From IMG/VR virus record IMGVR_UViG_2541047926_000006: 28,819 nucleotides of DNA. One strand, written 5' to 3'. This DNA comes from a virus. Its lineage: Duplodnaviria > Heunggongvirae > Uroviricota > Caudoviricetes. The notes beneath the pieces are model-generated. The model was not told the origin of the DNA, did not search any database, and saw only the letters and a program-made list of their open reading frames with translations. The translations under genes were made by a program, and so were the position numbers. Position 1 is the first letter of the stretch. Each line of letters begins with the position of its first letter. Shown piece by piece: positions 6,041 through 28,819 of this stretch.

Positions 6041-7450
6041 TCAGCTGATACTGATGCCTGCGGTGGCTTTCTTCATCACCACAACCAGCAAATCGCTGAT
6101 ACTTGCTGTGGGATACCAGTCATTTACCAGCCATGCTGACACCGAAAACTCCAGCGTCATGTGGCCGTGACCAGCTGGCATATCAATAACACCACTGTAA
6201 ATCAGCGTATTATCCAGCGCGGTACGGTTATAAATTTCAGCACCATTTTTCTTCACTATCAGGCGGCATGACGAATAAATATCGTTATTCTCCCGCTCAT
6301 GTTTAGCGCCGCAGAATGCCACCGCTGGAATAACAATTTGCCTGTCAAAAGGCTGATCGTCATAAATCCTGACGGTAATGGTCCCTGATGGCCACCGCTC
6401 CGGTGCCCGGGAGTCCTGCGGGAAAGCCTTACCCACTGTTTTGACAATATCGCCTTCAATCTGATTGGCTGACAGTTTCCCCTTAATCTGACAGTTCTCA
6501 TTAATCGTGACGTTGTTGAGCGTCCCGGAGTTCGCATTCACACTGCCACTGATATCCGCATTTTTAGCAGTCAGCTTTCCGTCCGGTGTCAGGGAAAATG
6601 CCGGTGGATTTCCACCGCTGGTAATGGTGGGGGCCGTCAGATACTTCAGGAACACGTCGTTCATGAATATCTGATCGCCCTGACCAACAAACATCGGTTT
6701 TGTGTTGCCATTCGCAGGATTAACCATCGCAATCCTGTCCGCCGCCAGCAGCACCTGACTCTGCATGCCGTCAGGGGTGTTCTCAATACCGGCACCAATA
6801 CCCGCGATATAAAGGCGTCCGTCCTGCATCTGCTGCAGCTTCACAGCCCACATGCTGTTCAGGTTATTATTTGTATCAACCTGAACCTTCTGTATCTGCT
6901 GAATTGCCGCACTCTGGTCTTCCAGTTTCTTATTGACGGTCTGCGTGATTTCATTGCTGACATCCGTAATGGACGTCCTGATTTCAGCCAGGTCAGGCGC
7001 AAGCTGACCGTTATCAATCTGCGTCCACAGCTCCTGAGCCAGATGGGTTTTCCCTATCCCGTCGAGAATACTGGCAATTTCACCTGCGATCCGCGACAGC
7101 ACGAAAGTACAGAATGCGGTTTCCACCACTTCAGCGGAGTCTCTGGCATTCTTCAGTTCCTGTGCGTCGGCCTGCGCACGCGTAAGTCGATGGCGTTCGT
7201 ACTCAATAGTCCCTGGCTGGAGATCTGCCTCGCTGGCCTGCCGCAGTTCTTCAACCTCCCGGCGCAGCTTTTCGTTCTCAATTTCAGCATCCCTTTCGGC
7301 ATACCATTTTATAACGGCGGCAGAGTCATAAAGCACCTCATTACCCTTGCCACCGCCTCGCAGAACGGGCATTCCCTGTTCCTGCCAGTTCTGAATGGTA
7401 CGGATACTCGCACCGAAAATGTCAGCCAGCTGCTTTTTGTTGACTTCCAT
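6041..7450 (-). CDS. nohA: Chimeric ORF: terminase small subunit Nu1 N-terminus fused in frame to a tail-tip protein J C-terminal region
   Basis: First ~130 aa ([78 protein letters not shown]...) match lambda Nu1 as I recall it. The remainder (…[30 protein letters not shown]…[14 protein letters not shown]…) resembles the lambda J C-terminal domain. One continuous 469-aa frame. Confidence 0.85.
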
Positions 7451-18917: not shown

Positions 18918-20257
18918 TCAATCTATTTTATCGGGATCAGGCTTCTTTTTAGGTAACTTCGGGGGCTTAACTTGCTGATGACTTTGCGTTCGGCGCGTAA
19001 GCCAGGGATGGTCAGCTTTAGATTTAACATAGTATTTTGAGCGTAAATCAATACGGGCATTATCCACTCGTTCATGGACACTCTTTTCATCATCCAGTGG
19101 TATAGGCTCCGGGCCATCAACATACTTTTCCCAGCCCAGCGCTTTCCCGTCATACAGAACGTTAATTTCACCGTCAAAGTTCTCACATACAGTAACAACC
19201 GAATGCCTAAGTCGATATCCCCGGCCCTCACTGCGTACCTGAAACGCACTGCTTTTGTACTGGAAAGTGAGATTTTTAGACAGAACGCGCTTCGCCTGTA
19301 GGCTGAAGATATAACCCAGTTCCTCTTCAGAATGGTGCACATCAAGATGAGCATTATCAGTAGTACGAGGCGACGTAGCGAACCGGTTGTTATAGGCTTC
19401 AATAAAGGTCGGCAACCATGCATTTGCTGTTTCAATATCACTGATATTCTGAAGCCGCATTTCTTTGACCAGCCTGTCCTGTAGTGTCTGATTGGCGCGC
19501 TCTACCCGCCCTTTTGCCTGCGGGCTGTTGGCATGGATTGGCTCGATGCCCAGTGTCTTTATCGCACGAGTGAACTGGGTCAGCTCACCTTCCCGCTCTG
19601 GGTTATTTACCCTGAATATACTGTGTCTATCAGAGTAGAGAGCGAGCGGTACGCCATGATCATTAAGGTAACCCCGGAGGGTTTCCATGTAAGCCCGGGT
19701 TGTTTCAGCAGGCACAAAACGCAACGCCATCAACGCACTGGTGGCATCATCAATGAAAACGATCAGTGTACATCTGTGGCCTCGATTTTCAAACCAGTCA
19801 TGAGGTGAGCCATCAATCTGGATCAGTTCACCGTAAGATGGTCGTCGCATGCGGCGTTGATATATACGGGCAATTTTACGACGGCGTTCACGCCATAACC
19901 CCTCTTCTATCATCCACTTTCTGAGAGTTTCAACGGATAAAGATAAACCGTGTATCTCGCGCAATTTTTCGCACGCAAACGTAGGTCCAAAATCAGCGTA
20001 ACGGCCTTTGAGGAGTGAAATTACTGTGCTCTGAATTCAGTAGAAAAGGAATTATTAGGACGCTTTCCACGTCGGTGGGAAACCAGACCAGAAGGCCCTT
20101 CATTTCTATACCGTTGCACCAGACGTTTAACCTGCCGAATAGAAATGCCAATGCGTGCCGCAGCTTGTTCCTGAGTAATATGTCGATTAATTGACTCCTG
20201 AATAATCTGAAGTCGGTGGAGTTCCTTATGACTCATCGTAACAGTCTCTTTGATCAT
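18918..20257 (-). pseudogene. DDE (rve-superfamily) integrase/transposase, split into an N-terminal HTH ORF and a catalytic ORF in a different frame
   Basis: 78-aa HTH ORF (20021..20257, ...ISIRQVKRLVQRYRNEG...) and 348-aa ORF (18918..19964) with D...D...E spacing (IQIDGS, YSDRHS, KGRVER). The frames differ by 1 nt and no A6G-type slippery site was seen. Confidence 0.65.
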
Positions 20258-23089: not shown

Positions 23090-23245
23090 ATGGATACTAT
23101 CGATCTTGGCAACAACGAATCTCTGGTGTACGGCGTGTTTCCAAACCAGGACGGCACGTTCACCGCAATGACGTATACCAAAAGCAAAACGTTTAAAACC
23201 GAAAATGGTGCCCGTCGCTGGCTGGAAAGAAACTCAGGTGAGTGA
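23090..23245 (+). CDS. ydfA: Small protein YdfA
   Basis: 51 aa, MDTIDLGNNESLVYGVFPNQDGTFTAMTYTKSKTFKTENGARRWLERNSGE. GAGG Shine-Dalgarno 8 nt upstream. Confidence 0.85.
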   Translation: MDTIDLGNNESLVYGVFPNQDGTFTAMTYTKSKTFKTENGARRWLERNSGE

Positions 23246-23246
23246 T

Positions 23247-23822
23247 ATGGATTTCGACACAATCATGGAAAAGGCTTACGAAGAATACTTCGAAGGCCTT
23301 GCCGAAGGCGAAGAAGCTCTCAGCTTCAGTGAGTTTAAACAGGCACTCAGAATAAGAATGTGCTCTCACAATGACGCGGAGCACAAATATGAGAAGCAAA
23401 ATCAGACCGCAGAAAATTTTGTTCTGGAACCCGGAGAAACGCTTTTCAAAATTCCCGTTACGTGCCCCATTTGCGGTTTTACATCAGAAGAACTTGACGA
23501 CTCCTGTAACAATCAGGAAACAACCAAGTATGTCGAAGATGATACCGAGTGCGCACGAAGAACGATTATATCCACGAGTCCAAACTCCAGGACCAATAAA
23601 TCTCACTATGAGAGGGTGATTAATCCACTCCCCCAAACCAATAAAAAAGATGCCGGAGGACAAAAAACCCAATGGAACAACGGGATATCTGTCAAAAAAA
23701 GACGTTCCATTAAAGACAAACAACGCAGCGCCAACAACTGTAAGCGCTTTATACCAGTAATCAATTTTCATGTTCTTAAGCGGATTTATTGGTGGTTGCG
23801 ACATTGCTTAATGAATCCTTAA
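23247..23822 (+). CDS. 191-aa protein with a CxxC zinc-ribbon motif, covering the ydfB/ydfC region
   Basis: ATG at 23247 overlaps the ydfA stop. MDFDTIMEKAYEEYFEG...PVTCPICGFTSEELDDSC.... I recall K-12 carrying two short genes (ydfB, ydfC) here; in this sequence the frame is continuous. Confidence 0.55.
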   Translation: MDFDTIMEKAYEEYFEGLAEGEEALSFSEFKQALRIRMCSHNDAEHKYEKQNQTAENFVLEPGETLFKIPVTCPICGFTSEELDDSCNNQETTKYVEDDTECARRTIISTSPNSRTNKSHYERVINPLPQTNKKDAGGQKTQWNNGISVKKRRSIKDKQRSANNCKRFIPVINFHVLKRIYWWLRHCLMNP

Positions 23823-24308: not shown

Positions 24309-24497
24309 ATGAAAACGTTATTACCAAACGTTAATACGTCTGAAGGTTGTTTTGAAATTGGTGTCACTATCAGTAACCCTGTATTTACTGAAGATGCCAT
24401 TAACAAGAGAAAACAAGAACGGGAGCTATTAAATAAAATATGCATTGTTTCAATGCTGGCTCGTTTACGTCTGATGCCAAAAGGATGTGCACAATGA
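24309..24497 (+). CDS. dicB: Cell-division inhibitor DicB
   Basis: 62 aa, MKTLLPNVNTSEGCFEIGVTISNPVFTEDAINKRKQERELLNKICIVSMLARLRLMPKGCAQ. GAGGA Shine-Dalgarno. Confidence 0.92.
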   Translation: MKTLLPNVNTSEGCFEIGVTISNPVFTEDAINKRKQERELLNKICIVSMLARLRLMPKGCAQ

Positions 24498-24685
24498 ATT
24501 CAGCATTTGCGCTTGTTCTGACAGTTTTTCTTGTTTCCGGAGTGCCAGTTGATATTGCAGTCAGTGTTCACAGGACAATGCAGGAGTGTATGACTGCAGC
24601 AACCGAACAGAAAATTCCCGGTAACTGTTACCCGGTCGATAAAGTTATTCACCAGGATAATATCGAAATCCCGGCAGGTCTTTAA
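24494..24685 (+). CDS. ydfD: Small membrane lysis protein YdfD
   Basis: 63 aa, MNSAFALVLTVFLVSGVPVDIAVSVHRTMQECMTAATEQKIPGNCYPVDKVIHQDNIEIPAGL. ATGA overlap with the dicB stop. Confidence 0.9.
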   Translation: MNSAFALVLTVFLVSGVPVDIAVSVHRTMQECMTAATEQKIPGNCYPVDKVIHQDNIEIPAGL

Positions 24686-24945
24686 AACAGTTCCGTAATA
24701 AATATCCGGTTTCATTCTTATATGCCAGCAATGGCAGGGATTTGTTCATCCTTAAATCTGTCATGAGGTTAAAACAAAATGAGTAAAGTCTTTATTTGCG
24801 CCGCTATTCCTGACGAACTGGCAACTTTCACTGGCAGTTCCTGGAACATTATCCGGCTGCTCAGGACTGCGCTTATAAATTTATTGTCTGCGAGGATAAA
24901 CCTGGCATACCCCGCCCTGCCCTCGATTCATGGGATGCTGAATAT

Positions 24946-27180
24946 ATGCAGGAAAACCGCTGGGATGAGGAGTCTGCTTCTTTTGTCCCGGTTGAGACTG
25001 AATCCGATCCGATGAACGTCACTTTTGACAAGCTGGCCCCTGAAGTACAGAACGCTGTCATGGTTAAGTTCGACACATGTGAAAACATCACCGTTGATAT
25101 GGTTATTAGCGCACAGGAATTGTTGCAGGAAGACATGGCAACATTCGACGGACATATCGTTGAAGCGTTGATGAAAATGCCAGAAGTTAACGCCATGTAT
25201 CCGGAGCTTAAGTTGCACGCCATTGGGTGGGTTAAGCATAAATGTATTCCTGGTGCTAAATGGCCCGAAATTCAGGCAGAGATGCGCATCTGGAAAAAAC
25301 GTCGCGAAGGTGAACGCAAGGAAACCGGAAAATACACGTCTGTTGTTGATCTCGCCCGCGCCAGAGCCAATCAACAGTACACTGAAAATTCAACAGGAAA
25401 AATCAGCCCGGTCATTGCTGCCATTCATCGCGAATACAAGCAGACATGGAAAACACTGGATGACGAACTGGCCTACGCTCTCTGGCCTGGTGATGTGGAT
25501 GCCGGAAACATTGACGGCAGCATCCATCGCTGGGCAAAAAAAGAAGTTATCGACAACGACCGCGAAGACTGGAAGCGTATCTCGGCATCAATGCGCAAAC
25601 AGCCTGATGCCCTTCGCTACGACCGCCAAACTATTTTTGGCCTTGTCCGTGAGCGTCCGATCGACATTCACAAAGATCCCGTAGCACTGAACAAATATAT
25701 CTGCGAATACCTGACGACAAAGGGCGTGTTTGAGAATGAAGAAACAGACCTGGGCACTGTTGATGTTCTCCAGTCATCAGAAACACAAACTGATGCAGTG
25801 GAAACTGAGGTATCTGATATCCCAAAAAATGAAACCGCGCCGGAAGCTGAACCATCTGTAGAGCGTGAGGGGCCGTTCTATTTCCTCTTCGCAGATAAGG
25901 ACGGAGAAAAATACGGTCGCGCAAACAAACTTTCTGGTCTGGATAAGGCACTGGCTGCTGGCGCCACTGAAATCACAAAAGAAGAATATTTTGCCCGAAA
26001 AAATGGCACATACACGGGCTTACCGCAAAATGTAGATACCGCTGAAGATTCAGAACAACCAGAGCCGATAAAAGTTACCGCTGACGAAGTAAACAAAATT
26101 ATGCAGGCAGCCAATATCAGCCAGCCTGACGCCGATAAGTTGCTTGCTGCATCACGTGGTGAATTTGTTGAAGGGATTAGTGACCCGAATGATCCGAAAT
26201 GGGTTAAGGGGATCCAGACCCGCGATTCTGTGAACCAGAACCAGCATGAATCGGAACGGAACTACCAAAAAGCGGAACAAAACAGTCCAAATGCGTTACA
26301 AAACGAGCCAGAAACGAAACAGCCTGAACCAGTGGCGCAACAGGAAGTGGAAAAAGCCTGCACCGCCTGCGGTCAGACCGGCGGCGGCAACTGCCCTGAT
26401 TGTGGCGCGGTGATGGGCGACGCAACATACCAAGAAACATTCGATGAAGAGTATCAGGTTGAAGTTCAGGAAGATGATCCGGAGGAAATGGAAGGCGCTG
26501 AACATCCACACAAGGAGAACACTGGCGGCAATCAGCATCACAATAGCGATAATGAAACTGGCGAGACGGCAGATCACCCAATTAAGGTGAACGGTCATCA
26601 CGAAATCACATCCACCAGCAGGACGTGTGACCATCTAATGATCGACCTTGAAACCATGGGAAAAAATCCTGATGCCCCGATCATCTCAATAGGTGCAATA
26701 TTTTTCGATCCGCAAACCGGAGATATGGGACCGGAATTTAGTAAGACTATCGATCTGGAAACTGCTGGCGGAGTCATTGATCGGGACACCATTAAATGGT
26801 GGCTTAAGCAATCACGCGAAGCGCAATCTGCCATTATGACCGATGAAATCCCGTTAGATGATGCACTGTTACAATTGCGGGAATTTATCGACGAAAACTC
26901 CGGTGAATTTTTTGTTCAGGTTTGGGGAAATGGAGCCAACTTCGACAACACGATTTTGCGCCGTTCATACGAACGGCAGGGGATCCCCTGCCCGTGGCGT
27001 TACTACAACGATCGCGATGTACGCACAATCGTTGAGCTGGGGAAAGCCATAGACTTCGATGCCAGAACGGCTATTCCATTCGAAGGTGAGCGCCATAATG
27101 CACTTGATGACGCCCGTTACCAGGCAAAATACGTTTCAGTTATCTGGCAAAAACTGATCCCGAGTCAGGCTGATTCTTAA
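24946..27180 (+). CDS. ydfE: Large prophage protein with an internal zinc ribbon and a C-terminal DEDDh 3'-5' exonuclease domain (intact form of the ydfE locus)
   Basis: 744-aa ORF. Exo motifs MIDLETMG (D,E), GNGANFDNTIL (D), ERHNALDDARYQAKY (H-x4-D). Zinc ribbon CTACGQTGGGNCPDCG. Acidic low-complexity linker. Start codon uncertain. Confidence 0.75.
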   Translation: MQENRWDEESASFVPVETESDPMNVTFDKLAPEVQNAVMVKFDTCENITVDMVISAQELLQEDMATFDGHIVEALMKMPEVNAMYPELKLHAIGWVKHKCIPGAKWPEIQAEMRIWKKRREGERKETGKYTSVVDLARARANQQYTENSTGKISPVIAAIHREYKQTWKTLDDELAYALWPGDVDAGNIDGSIHRWAKKEVIDNDREDWKRISASMRKQPDALRYDRQTIFGLVRERPIDIHKDPVALNKYICEYLTTKGVFENEETDLGTVDVLQSSETQTDAVETEVSDIPKNETAPEAEPSVEREGPFYFLFADKDGEKYGRANKLSGLDKALAAGATEITKEEYFARKNGTYTGLPQNVDTAEDSEQPEPIKVTADEVNKIMQAANISQPDADKLLAASRGEFVEGISDPNDPKWVKGIQTRDSVNQNQHESERNYQKAEQNSPNALQNEPETKQPEPVAQQEVEKACTACGQTGGGNCPDCGAVMGDATYQETFDEEYQVEVQEDDPEEMEGAEHPHKENTGGNQHHNSDNETGETADHPIKVNGHHEITSTSRTCDHLMIDLETMGKNPDAPIISIGAIFFDPQTGDMGPEFSKTIDLETAGGVIDRDTIKWWLKQSREAQSAIMTDEIPLDDALLQLREFIDENSGEFFVQVWGNGANFDNTILRRSYERQGIPCPWRYYNDRDVRTIVELGKAIDFDARTAIPFEGERHNALDDARYQAKYVSVIWQKLIPSQADS

Positions 27181-27252: not shown

Positions 27253-27504
27253 ATGAGCGAAGTAATCATGATTGTCTCTCCCGGCAAATGGGTATCCGAA
27301 GAGCAGTTAATTGCGCTGAAAGGAATAAAAAAAGGTACGTTAAAAAAGGCCCGGGAAAAATCGTTTATGGAAGGAAGGGAATATAAGCATGTCGCTCATG
27401 ACGGTATGCCATGGGATAACAGTCCATGCTTTTACAACCTGGAAGAAATTGATCGCTGGATTGAGCGCCAGGCATCAGCGAGACCAAGACGTCATCTTAC
27501 TTGA
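27253..27504 (+). CDS. Putative excisionase / small DNA-binding protein upstream of int
   Basis: 83-aa ORF immediately upstream of the integrase on the same strand. Assigned from position and size only. Confidence 0.45.
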   Translation: MSEVIMIVSPGKWVSEEQLIALKGIKKGTLKKAREKSFMEGREYKHVAHDGMPWDNSPCFYNLEEIDRWIERQASARPRRHLT

Positions 27505-27538
27505 CTAAAAGCCACACTAACTAATGAGAGAAGTTGAA

Positions 27539-28819
27539 ATGAAATATCCGACAGGCGTGGAAAACCATGGAGGGAAATTACGTATCTGGTTTGTTTATAA
27601 AGGCGTAAGAGTCAGGGAAAATCTGGGGGTTCCTGACACAGCAAAAAACAGGCGCGTTGCAGGTGAACTACGCTCCTCTGTTTGTTACGCAATAAAAACT
27701 GGTGTTTTCGACTATGCAAAACAGTTTCCCTCCTCACGCAATCTGGAAAAATTTGGTGAGGCCCGACAAGATTTAACCATAAAAGAACTGGCTGAAAAAT
27801 TTCTGGCACTGAAAGAAACTGAAGTCGCCAAAACATCACTCAACACATACCGTGCCGTCATCAAAAATATCCTGAGCATAATCGGTGAAAAAAATCTTGC
27901 CTCATCGATTAATAAAGAAAAATTACTGGAGGTTCGTAAAGAGCTACTGATTGGATACCAGATCCCCAAAAGTAACTATATTGTTACACAACCAGGGAGA
28001 TCGGCTGTAACTGTAAATAATTACATGACAAATCTTAACGCCGTGTTCCAGTTTGGTGTTGATAACGGTTACCTGGCAGATAATCCGTTTAAGGGGATCT
28101 CGCCATTAAAGGAATCAAGAACCATTCCGGATCCTCTTTCGCGGGAGGAATTTATCCGTCTTATCGATGCGTGCAGAAATCAGCAAGCAAAAAATTTATG
28201 GTGTGTTTCTGTTTATACTGGCGTTCGCCCTGGTGAGCTGTGTGCACTTGGATGGGAGGACATAGATCTGAAAAATGGAACAATGATGATCAGGAGAAAT
28301 TTAGCAAAAGACCGTTTCACGGTACCAAAAACACAGGCGGGAACCAATCGGGTCATTCATCTTATTAAGCCAGCAATCGACGCTCTCCGGAGTCAGATGA
28401 CATTAACGAGACTGAGCAAAGAGCATATCATTGATGTTCACCTCAGAGAGTATGGCAGAACAGAAAAACAAAAATGCACCTTTGTTTTTCAACCTGAAGT
28501 GTCAGCGAGAGTAAAAAATTATGGTGACCATTTTACCGTTGACTCAATAAGGCAGATGTGGGACGCAGCGATAAAACGTGCCGGACTCCGCCATCGAAAA
28601 TCATATCAGTCGAGACATACTTATGCCTGCTGGTCGCTGACAGCTGGTGCTAACCCGGCATTTATAGCAAACCAGATGGGCCATGCAGATGCGCAAATGG
28701 TATTTCAGGTATACGGAAAATGGATGTCTGAAAACAATAATGCACAGGTAGCTTTGTTAAATACACAGTTAAGCGAGTTTGCCCCAACCATTCCCCATAA
28801 CGAAGCAATGAAAAATTAA
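27539..28819 (+). CDS. intQ: Tyrosine recombinase (phage integrase)
   Basis: Start chosen at MKYPTGVENHGGKLRIWFVYKG... after a purine-rich Shine-Dalgarno. C-terminal catalytic region with R...HxxR...Y pattern (…SRHTYACWSL…VYGKWM…). TAA stop is the last three bases of the window. Confidence 0.85.
   Translation: MKYPTGVENHGGKLRIWFVYKGVRVRENLGVPDTAKNRRVAGELRSSVCYAIKTGVFDYAKQFPSSRNLEKFGEARQDLTIKELAEKFLALKETEVAKTSLNTYRAVIKNILSIIGEKNLASSINKEKLLEVRKELLIGYQIPKSNYIVTQPGRSAVTVNNYMTNLNAVFQFGVDNGYLADNPFKGISPLKESRTIPDPLSREEFIRLIDACRNQQAKNLWCVSVYTGVRPGELCALGWEDIDLKNGTMMIRRNLAKDRFTVPKTQAGTNRVIHLIKPAIDALRSQMTLTRLSKEHIIDVHLREYGRTEKQKCTFVFQPEVSARVKNYGDHFTVDSIRQMWDAAIKRAGLRHRKSYQSRHTYACWSLTAGANPAFIANQMGHADAQMVFQVYGKWMSENNNAQVALLNTQLSEFAPTIPHNEAMKN

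Follow-up and report, generated by a model that had tools for sequence, protein, structure and literature searches.

A probably pseudogenised YdfE-type exonuclease gene of a lambdoid prophage joins a RecE-type scaffold to a DexA-family nuclease domain

Between kil and xis-int, the pL operon of phage lambda encodes lambda Exo (Red-alpha), and the analogous slot of the Rac prophage of Escherichia coli K-12 holds recE, the gene for exonuclease VIII. Here we examine the gene found in this slot of a Qin-type lambdoid prophage, IMG/VR record IMGVR_UViG_2541047926_000006, a stretch of 28,819 nucleotides (hereafter "the window") in which an initial annotation had singled out a 744-amino-acid (aa) open reading frame (ORF) with a C-terminal exonuclease domain. 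Described relatives of that domain are exonuclease A (DexA) of phage T4 and EcD, both of which are 3'-5' DNA exonucleases (PMC12153337). DexA has roles in scavenging of host DNA and in double-strand-break repair during intron homing, whilst EcD, named HREX by its authors, digests only DNA that carries 5-hydroxymethylcytosine (5hmC), and its leaky expression is already enough for protection from T4 (PMC12153337). For RecE itself, reviews describe the function of the N-terminal region as unknown, and full-length RecE is known to boost linear-linear recombination (PMC11611040).

In our reading, Qin-type lambdoid prophages encode in their early left operon an 823-aa exonuclease, of which K-12 YdfE is a truncated form, and the locus is probably a pseudogenised copy of its gene. 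The ORF list confirmed the 744-aa ORF (Table 1), and its placement in the lambdoid recombination-gene slot was borne out, as dicB and ydfD lie on one side and xis-int on the other, the same syntenic position as that of recE in Rac and exo-bet-gam in lambda. The initial description of the ORF as the intact, undisrupted form did not hold, because references are 823 aa long and the gene is disrupted near its 5' end. The reference gene comprises 2472 bases, both in E. coli AR_0369 (WP_000048324.1) and in phage HannyBb. Alignment showed the window to be identical to these references save for 70 missing bases, with one further substitution against HannyBb; downstream of the deletion point the ORF is 100% identical to the reference and carries no mutations. 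The deletion frameshifts codons 17–79 of the 823-codon gene, so that translation from the true start is lost across ancestral codons 40–79, where the frame is open from 24814. That start, the ATG at 24779, matches the annotated starts of WP_000048324.1, the HannyBb gene and K-12 ydfE, which opens with the same MSKVFICAA... as the 823-aa references. K-12 ydfE had been noted as cut short by an insertion sequence, and it is indeed this same gene, interrupted by IS2E after codon 255.

Profile matches agreed with this arrangement. The PHROG 2082 match to the ORF starts only at profile position 80, and the 744-aa product on record scores for YdfE_C and PF16473 only, whereas intact 823-aa proteins carry both YdfE_N and YdfE_C (assignments taken from precomputed Pfam annotation), because the deletion takes out the N-terminal domain. 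Judged from its sequence, the window copy is pseudogenised and its full-length product could not be made, since loss of 70 base pairs (bp) after codon 16 shifts its frame and takes away its most constrained domain (see below). Taking identity, architecture and pseudogene status of the locus together, we hold them with high confidence.

The deletion is a genuine natural allele of a minor lineage, as the identical junction was present in all five of the independent assemblies that could be checked (loci L118–L122). The exact 744-aa product was called on nine contigs, drawn from NCBI, ENA and Logan assemblies. The same five assemblies led us to reject the gap as an assembly artefact or as an alteration of the window, and a programmed frameshift was rejected because all intact relatives carry the 70 bp within one continuous frame. 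When window positions 7056–28819 were compared with E. coli 1297KP, they aligned in two pieces at 99.8% identity, the record and query spans differing by 71 bases, that is, by the 70-bp deletion plus one. A search of 5426 complete E. coli genomes with a 36-base junction probe gave no match, nor did a 30-base junction pattern among the viral contigs of IMG/VR, and the junction was found in 0 of 80 closely related viral loci. Microhomology and direct repeats were looked for at the deletion ends and none were found. The lost bases (locus L001 6327–6396) hold a perfect palindrome with a 9-bp stem, GCTGTGGCT-GT-AGCCACAGC, and hairpin-stimulated deletion is a possible origin.

The intact protein is ordered as an N-terminal alpha/beta domain, two helical domains, a small beta-beta-alpha domain, a conserved helix motif, a zinc ribbon, an acidic linker and the C-terminal DEDDh nuclease; everything N-terminal of the nuclease makes up a non-catalytic scaffold shared with RecE. 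For residues 1–507 of the 823-aa form, AlphaFold with a 52-sequence alignment gave a mean predicted local distance difference test score (pLDDT) of 82.5 and predicted a compact alpha/beta domain at aa 1–95 (pLDDT 93–97). Structure prediction of the N-terminal region thus gave confident helical, beta-beta-alpha and, in the 823-aa form, alpha/beta domains, and yielded no informative match to a known fold: Foldseek with the full 744-aa model returned nothing from the PDB at E ≤ 0.001 and only tiny uncharacterised phage proteins from BFVD (E ≥ 0.07), and no PDB sequence matched the N-terminal 561 aa. The zinc ribbon noticed earlier is real (aa 472–486), but its spacing is CxxC-x7-CxxC and not the x10 first given. 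So is the long acidic region before the nuclease, whose 63 residues (aa 498–560) include 17 D/E, 3 K/R and 7 His.

Intact versions of the gene are common. An undisrupted 823-aa ORF was found in 63 of the 80 viral loci, the 823-aa cluster has 23183 member sequences, and the locus is carried by 3365 of 5426 complete E. coli genomes (about 60%); the gene is also intact in the viable phages HannyBb, Tritos, mEp460 and PhiR42_1. The ratio of nonsynonymous to synonymous substitution rates (dN/dS) was calculated pairwise from 57 intact alleles, giving values that are not phylogenetically independent. The lowest in the protein was that of aa 1–95 (0.10); the helical domains had 0.28 and the DEDDh domain 0.20, and the disordered linker at 346–388 was near neutral (0.91). 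On these ratios the whole 823-aa frame shows as a selected coding sequence, because its folded parts are constrained and its disordered linker is not.

Pseudogenisation has to be weighed against the proposal that the 744-aa ORF is still a working gene, started at its internal ATG (24946), with the nuclease complete and the scaffold largely preserved. All 744 codons are open with the catalytic residues intact, the sequence past the deletion is unmutated and 100% identical to the reference, the allele persists across several independent assemblies, and a weak GGGA, the only such signal read upstream of this ATG, lies 10 nucleotides before it. The true start and its GAGG nevertheless remain in place, and ribosomes translating the frameshifted 78-aa ORF from there would cross the internal ATG and end at 25015. 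Furthermore, the lost residues 1–79 come from the domain with the best prediction and the strongest constraint (pLDDT 93–97, dN/dS 0.10), a recent deletion alone would give complete downstream identity, which is thus no sign of selection, and the prophage around the gene is decaying. A 469-aa ORF at 6041–7450 (minus strand) has a small-terminase-like N-terminus (aa 1–189) and a tail fibre/J-like C-terminus (aa 130–469). As read from its sequence, this terminase::tail-J fusion indicates a large internal loss of head and tail genes, and the window prophage would therefore be defective, like Qin of K-12. A transposase ORF (18918–19964, minus strand) is inserted in the replication/immunity region, and is annotated in a near-identical reference as an incomplete IS1202-like transposase of the ISEsa1 family. 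We therefore regard a working 744-aa gene as improbable, although it is the alternative that survives best.

The C-terminal domain had been described as DnaQ/RNase T-like with DEDDh motifs, and this was upheld. PF16473 (Rv2179c-like) matched aa 563–734 with 226.7 bits against a cutoff of 27 (E = 2e-67), aligning the exonuclease motifs to a DEDD-family profile across the whole domain (profile positions 2–177 of 177), whilst the generic RNase_T model scored slightly under its threshold. All five catalytic residues are present, in the motifs MIDLETMG (aa 565–572, window 26638–26661; D567 and E569), ANFDNTIL (aa 664–671, 26935–26958; D667) and HNALDDARYQ (aa 717–726, 27094–27123; H717 and D722). 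They align with D7, E9, D119, H186 and D191 of DexA, and also with EcD, and they are kept in all but one of the aligned chimeric relatives. A phmmer search of PDB sequences at E ≤ 0.01 matched only 8kel and 8ken (E = 6e-8, aa 10–143 of the domain), which translation of T4 dexA identified as DexA, and returned no Rv2179c chain. EcD matched with 38% identity over 183 aa (E = 2e-37), spanning the whole domain.

EcD-type genes were recovered from viral contigs with the published forward primer; the reverse primer had no exact match in viral contigs. EcD is published as a bacterial defence exonuclease, and the word "prophage" is absent from the main text of that paper (PMC12153337). We found EcD on six IMG/VR viral contigs (L008, L013, L023, L024, L026 and L029). 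On L029 it adjoins a cI-like repressor gene and an integrase gene, which suggests a prophage or satellite gene. A D12-class N6-adenine DNA methyltransferase is encoded immediately downstream of the stand-alone EcD gene on L029 (5187–6167, minus strand), and also on L024 and L026.

This relationship raises the alternative of a prophage-encoded defence nuclease like HREX/EcD, in which the intact protein would degrade the 5hmC DNA of superinfecting T-even phages from 3' ends; we judge this unlikely and place it a little below a working 744-aa gene. It draws on the homology to EcD, whose digestion of 5hmC DNA and protection against T4 are published (PMC12153337), on the residence of EcD itself in integrase-bearing mobile elements, and on the frequency of defence genes in prophages. 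The residues tied to 5hmC recognition, however, are not conserved. At the positions of DexA W152 and D169, which are reported to recognise 5hmC, the window protein has Tyr and Lys, and the D169 position (Glu in EcD) is never acidic among the chimeric relatives, the alignment there lying in a loop and being less certain. The tetramer residue D90 of DexA is replaced by Ala in EcD, whereas the window protein keeps the Asp. The gene also sits in a repressed early-left operon, unlike a lysogen-expressed moron: a scan for promoters and terminators near it found nothing beyond shuffled expectation and no promoter-like plus-strand site of its own. PADLOC returned a weak generic Cas-associated DEDDh match and nothing else. 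We therefore assign the window protein, on its aligned residues, to the DexA family without the HREX signature, because the 5hmC-recognition residues are not conserved and the tetramer Asp is.

Less probable again is an exoribonuclease that trims RNA 3' ends, whether of RNA phages or of operon transcripts, in the manner of Rv2179c or of the TONDO nucleases. The Pfam family is named after the Mycobacterium tuberculosis 3'-5' exoribonuclease Rv2179c, NCBI labels many copies "3'-5' exoribonuclease domain-containing protein", and TONDO prophage DEDDh nucleases with auxiliary domains, which are ISG20-like, block MS2 and Qbeta by trimming 3' untranslated regions (2026 preprint, PMC13344964). Yet the TONDO enzymes form a different DEDDh clade restricted to proteins under 500 aa (PMC13344964). 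The only solved relative that the sequence search returned is the DNA exonuclease DexA, EcD as the closest tested homologue works on DNA, and the scaffold is held in common with RecE, a double-stranded DNA exonuclease.

For the N-terminal part of about 560 aa no family had been recognised at first, and domain searches have now placed it as the RecE scaffold. The NCBIfam RecE model (NF007259) matched ORF aa 167–544 at profile positions 271–600, with 282 bits against an equivalog cutoff of 1269, which was not reached. In BLASTP against K-12 RecE, residues 262–627 of the 823-aa protein aligned with RecE 278–592 (E = 3e-62). The two proteins are nearly identical over RecE ~450–592, a segment that runs from DKLLAASRGEFV to ETGE.AD and takes in the ribbon and the linker, so that the LLAASRGEFV..DPNDPKW motif, the ribbon and the linker of the RecE scaffold are all present. 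The match ends just before the PD-(D/E)XK domain of RecE (aa 615–850), which is presumably about where the minimal active fragment RecE588 begins. Pfam names the region YdfE_N (PF27430) and YdfE_C (PF27432), again by precomputed annotation. The scaffold family is narrow, with 212 of 1.84 billion representative proteins matching at E ≤ 0.001.

The same scaffold is found with another nuclease. E. coli proteins of 900 aa and 1058 aa have first ~625 residues that are ~97% and ~95% identical to the YdfE-type scaffold, and both end in a PD-(D/E)XK (PF12684) domain. The genes for these variants follow dicB-ydfD and are themselves followed by recT and lar, as in Rac. The two nuclease cassettes diverge within the acidic His-rich linker, after EEMEGAEHPH(K/N)EN. 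By contrast, the DEDDh form leads directly to xis-int without RecT in the window, AR_0369 and HannyBb (loci L001 and L002), and no gene for RecT or another annealase was found between exonuclease and xis-int in the window (27253..28819). Diverged DEDDh chimeras from other lambdoid prophages at other integration sites (loci L114, L115, L116 and L117) have the same layout, also without RecT; their nuclease domains are 55–74% identical to that of the window, and at the N-terminus they belong to the K-12 RecE type (PF06630). PF16473 is present on 10 and PF12684 on 18 of 55 long scaffold homologues. The family is a two-by-two mosaic, in which a PF06630 or YdfE_N N-terminus is combined with either PD-(D/E)XK plus RecT or DEDDh alone, and the function of the scaffold would therefore be independent of both nuclease polarity and RecT.

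A further reading, which we consider very unlikely, is that illegitimate recombination joined a Rac-type recE to an unrelated exonuclease gene and that the resulting DEDDh chimera has no function and is simply carried along by prophages: the cassette boundary does lie in a low-complexity, recombination-prone acidic linker and the gene is broken in K-12 and in the window, but purifying selection acts on all folded domains and not on the disordered linker, the ORF is intact in most viral loci and in the viable phages named above, and the diverged versions (55–74% identity), with the other N-terminal type, keep architecture and position in other prophages.

Three further observations concern relatives of this family. 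One diverged chimera, the 752-aa RecE-N::DEDDh protein P0256 (L116 6001–8259), has an open frame in which the ExoI Glu is replaced by Lys and the ExoII Asp by Ala (MVDLKTMG and YSFANVIL), and may thus be a catalytically dead nuclease with its scaffold retained. The ribbon motif recurs in K-12 RecE, in the PD-(D/E)XK variants and at the C-terminus of the D12 adenine methyltransferase beside EcD; from these occurrences it looks like a portable module on various phage DNA enzymes. A PaaA2/ParE toxin-antitoxin pair (L004 4027–4508) is inserted just past the repressor gene of a Rac/Qin hybrid prophage that encodes the 900-aa PD-(D/E)XK variant.

For the intact YdfE-type protein, we lean slightly towards a role in processing DNA 3' ends. 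When the dicA-controlled operon is derepressed, the protein would be made alongside DicF, DicB, YdfD, Xis and Int. Its DEDDh domain would take nucleotides off free 3'-OH ends by two-metal catalysis, with D567, E569, D667 and D722 holding the metals and H717 serving as the general base. By analogy with DexA and EcD, DNA is the most probable substrate. The RecE-type scaffold may tether or oligomerise the nuclease at whatever target RecE uses, and the DEDDh form would act without a dedicated annealase of its own, as suggested by the family mosaic, which pairs the DEDDh cassette with no RecT. Such a protein would not be a RecET-type two-component recombinase; its likely role would be the 3'-end processing or degradation of linear DNA in lytic development, nearer to that of DexA in T4 than to that of RecET in Rac.

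Several points weigh against this reading. Among the listed papers that mention ydfE, titles and abstracts reveal no apparent functional study of the gene, and the naming of the Pfam family for the exoribonuclease Rv2179c makes an RNA substrate conceivable. We know of no established role in lambdoid recombination for a 3'-5' exonuclease without an annealase. The full-length prediction modelled the DEDDh domain poorly (pLDDT 45–76), because the alignment mixed different nuclease domains, and its fold is accordingly assigned by sequence. Finally, the 744-aa ORF is in principle translatable from the internal ATG, which would give a truncated, catalytic protein in place of a dead gene.

The features of the locus are collected in Table 1. 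Upstream of dicB, a 205-aa ORF (23205–23822, plus strand) with a CPICG motif matches PHROG 35040, of unknown function; it stands at the position of ydfB and ydfC in K-12 Qin and occurs in phage HannyBb too.

Table 1. Positions in the window of the exonuclease gene, its parts and its neighbors
Feature	Position	Strand	Basis
dicB, upstream operon partner	24309-24497	+	ORF list, reference comparison
ydfD, upstream operon partner	24494-24685	+	ORF list, reference comparison
Ancestral ribosome-binding site GAGG (24765-24768) and true start ATG (24779-24781) of the 823-codon gene	24765..24781	+	Sequence; annotated starts
Frameshifted 78-aa ORF: authentic codons 1-15 and two bases of codon 16 (MSKVFICAAIPDELAT), then out of frame	24779..25015	+	ORF list, translation, alignment
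Junction of the 70-bp deletion; lost bases AAGGGAAGAAGGCGCTGTGGCTGTAGCCACAGCCATTGAAGCTGGCGACGAACGCCGTGCTCGAGCAAAA	24825..24826	+	Alignment
Ancestral codons 40-79, upstream of the first start codon of the 744-aa ORF and in its frame	24826..24945	+	Alignment
Reported 744-aa ORF, residues 80-823 of the full-length protein	24946..27180	+	ORF list; PHROG 2082 match at profile positions 80-822/823
Two predicted helical domains of the RecE-type scaffold (ORF aa ~21-131 and ~166-261), with a low-confidence loop between	25006..25728	+	AlphaFold pLDDT 90-98
Acidic disordered linker (ORF aa 266-305)	25741..25860	+	pLDDT below 40
Predicted small beta-beta-alpha domain (ORF aa ~311-352)	25876..26001	+	pLDDT 90-96
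LLAASRGEFVEGISDPNDPKW, best-conserved scaffold motif, nearly identical in K-12 RecE aa ~455-480	26140..26202	+	Sequence alignment
Zinc ribbon CTACGQTGGGNCPDC (C472, C475, C483, C486), then GAVMGDATYQETF	26359..26442	+	Sequence
Acidic His-rich linker (ORF aa 498-560)	26437..26625	+	Sequence
DEDDh 3'-5' exonuclease domain, Rv2179c-like/DexA family (ORF aa 563-734)	26632..27147	+	Pfam, PDB sequence match, alignments
Excisionase, downstream	27253-27504	+	ORF list, reference comparison
Integrase, downstream	27524-28819	+	ORF list, reference comparison

The gene is already catalogued, as "exonuclease" or "3'-5' exonuclease" in RefSeq, as PHROG 2082, and as YdfE_N plus YdfE_C in Pfam. The window copy appears dead, which locally is no more than the usual decay of a prophage. 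Intact members of the family are common and under purifying selection and, as far as our searches show, uncharacterised. A very widespread E. coli prophage gene is now placed in the DexA/EcD enzyme family, and it is seen not to share the published 5hmC-recognition signature. The natural cassette swap offers a practical handle on the function of the RecE N-terminus, which is relevant to RecET-based cloning technology. A bolder and rather doubtful proposal is that the N-terminal region of RecE is an autonomous, nuclease-agnostic targeting module that directs its attached nuclease, of whichever kind, to the same target in the cell or the phage. If so, the DEDDh chimera would be a single-protein, annealase-independent processor of DNA ends that promotes end joining or assembly through 5' overhangs, or alternatively one that sabotages the 3'-tailed recombination intermediates of competing elements. 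For assembly through 5' overhangs, XthA-dependent in vivo cloning (iVEC), which a host 3' exonuclease drives, is a precedent.

Compared with RecE of the K-12 Rac prophage, the window gene occupies the same operon slot, from the kil-type genes to xis-int, and its product shares the pre-nuclease scaffold, including zinc ribbon and acidic linker. They differ in the catalytic domain, which is DEDDh (3'-5') in the window protein and PD-(D/E)XK (5'-3') in RecE: K-12 RecE has PF12684 at aa 615–850, and no PF12684 match was found on the window protein or the 823-aa reference. They also differ at the extreme N-terminus (YdfE_N in the 823-aa protein, PF06630 in RecE) and downstream, where excisionase and integrase genes come next with no recT or lar. 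Lambda Exo was noted at the outset as different in fold and polarity, and is so, being a 226-aa PD-(D/E)XK enzyme that works 5'-3' with the annealase Beta and Gam (PMC11611040); it has no sequence similarity to the window protein. DexA belongs to the same DEDDh subfamily, is likewise phage-encoded and has the same conserved catalytic D, E, D, H and D. However, identity is only ~24%, and DexA is a stand-alone protein of 227 aa with extra loops, whereas the window family adds a 640-aa scaffold. EcD (HAK9828821.1) is the closest experimentally tested homologue of the domain and is also found on integrase-bearing mobile elements. It is, in contrast, a stand-alone 189-aa protein in another genomic setting, with Trp and Glu at the 5hmC positions and Ala at the tetramer position in place of the Tyr, Lys and Asp of the window protein. 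Set against these characterized systems, the gene is a variant that has no annealase and joins a RecE scaffold to a DexA-type nuclease of opposite polarity.

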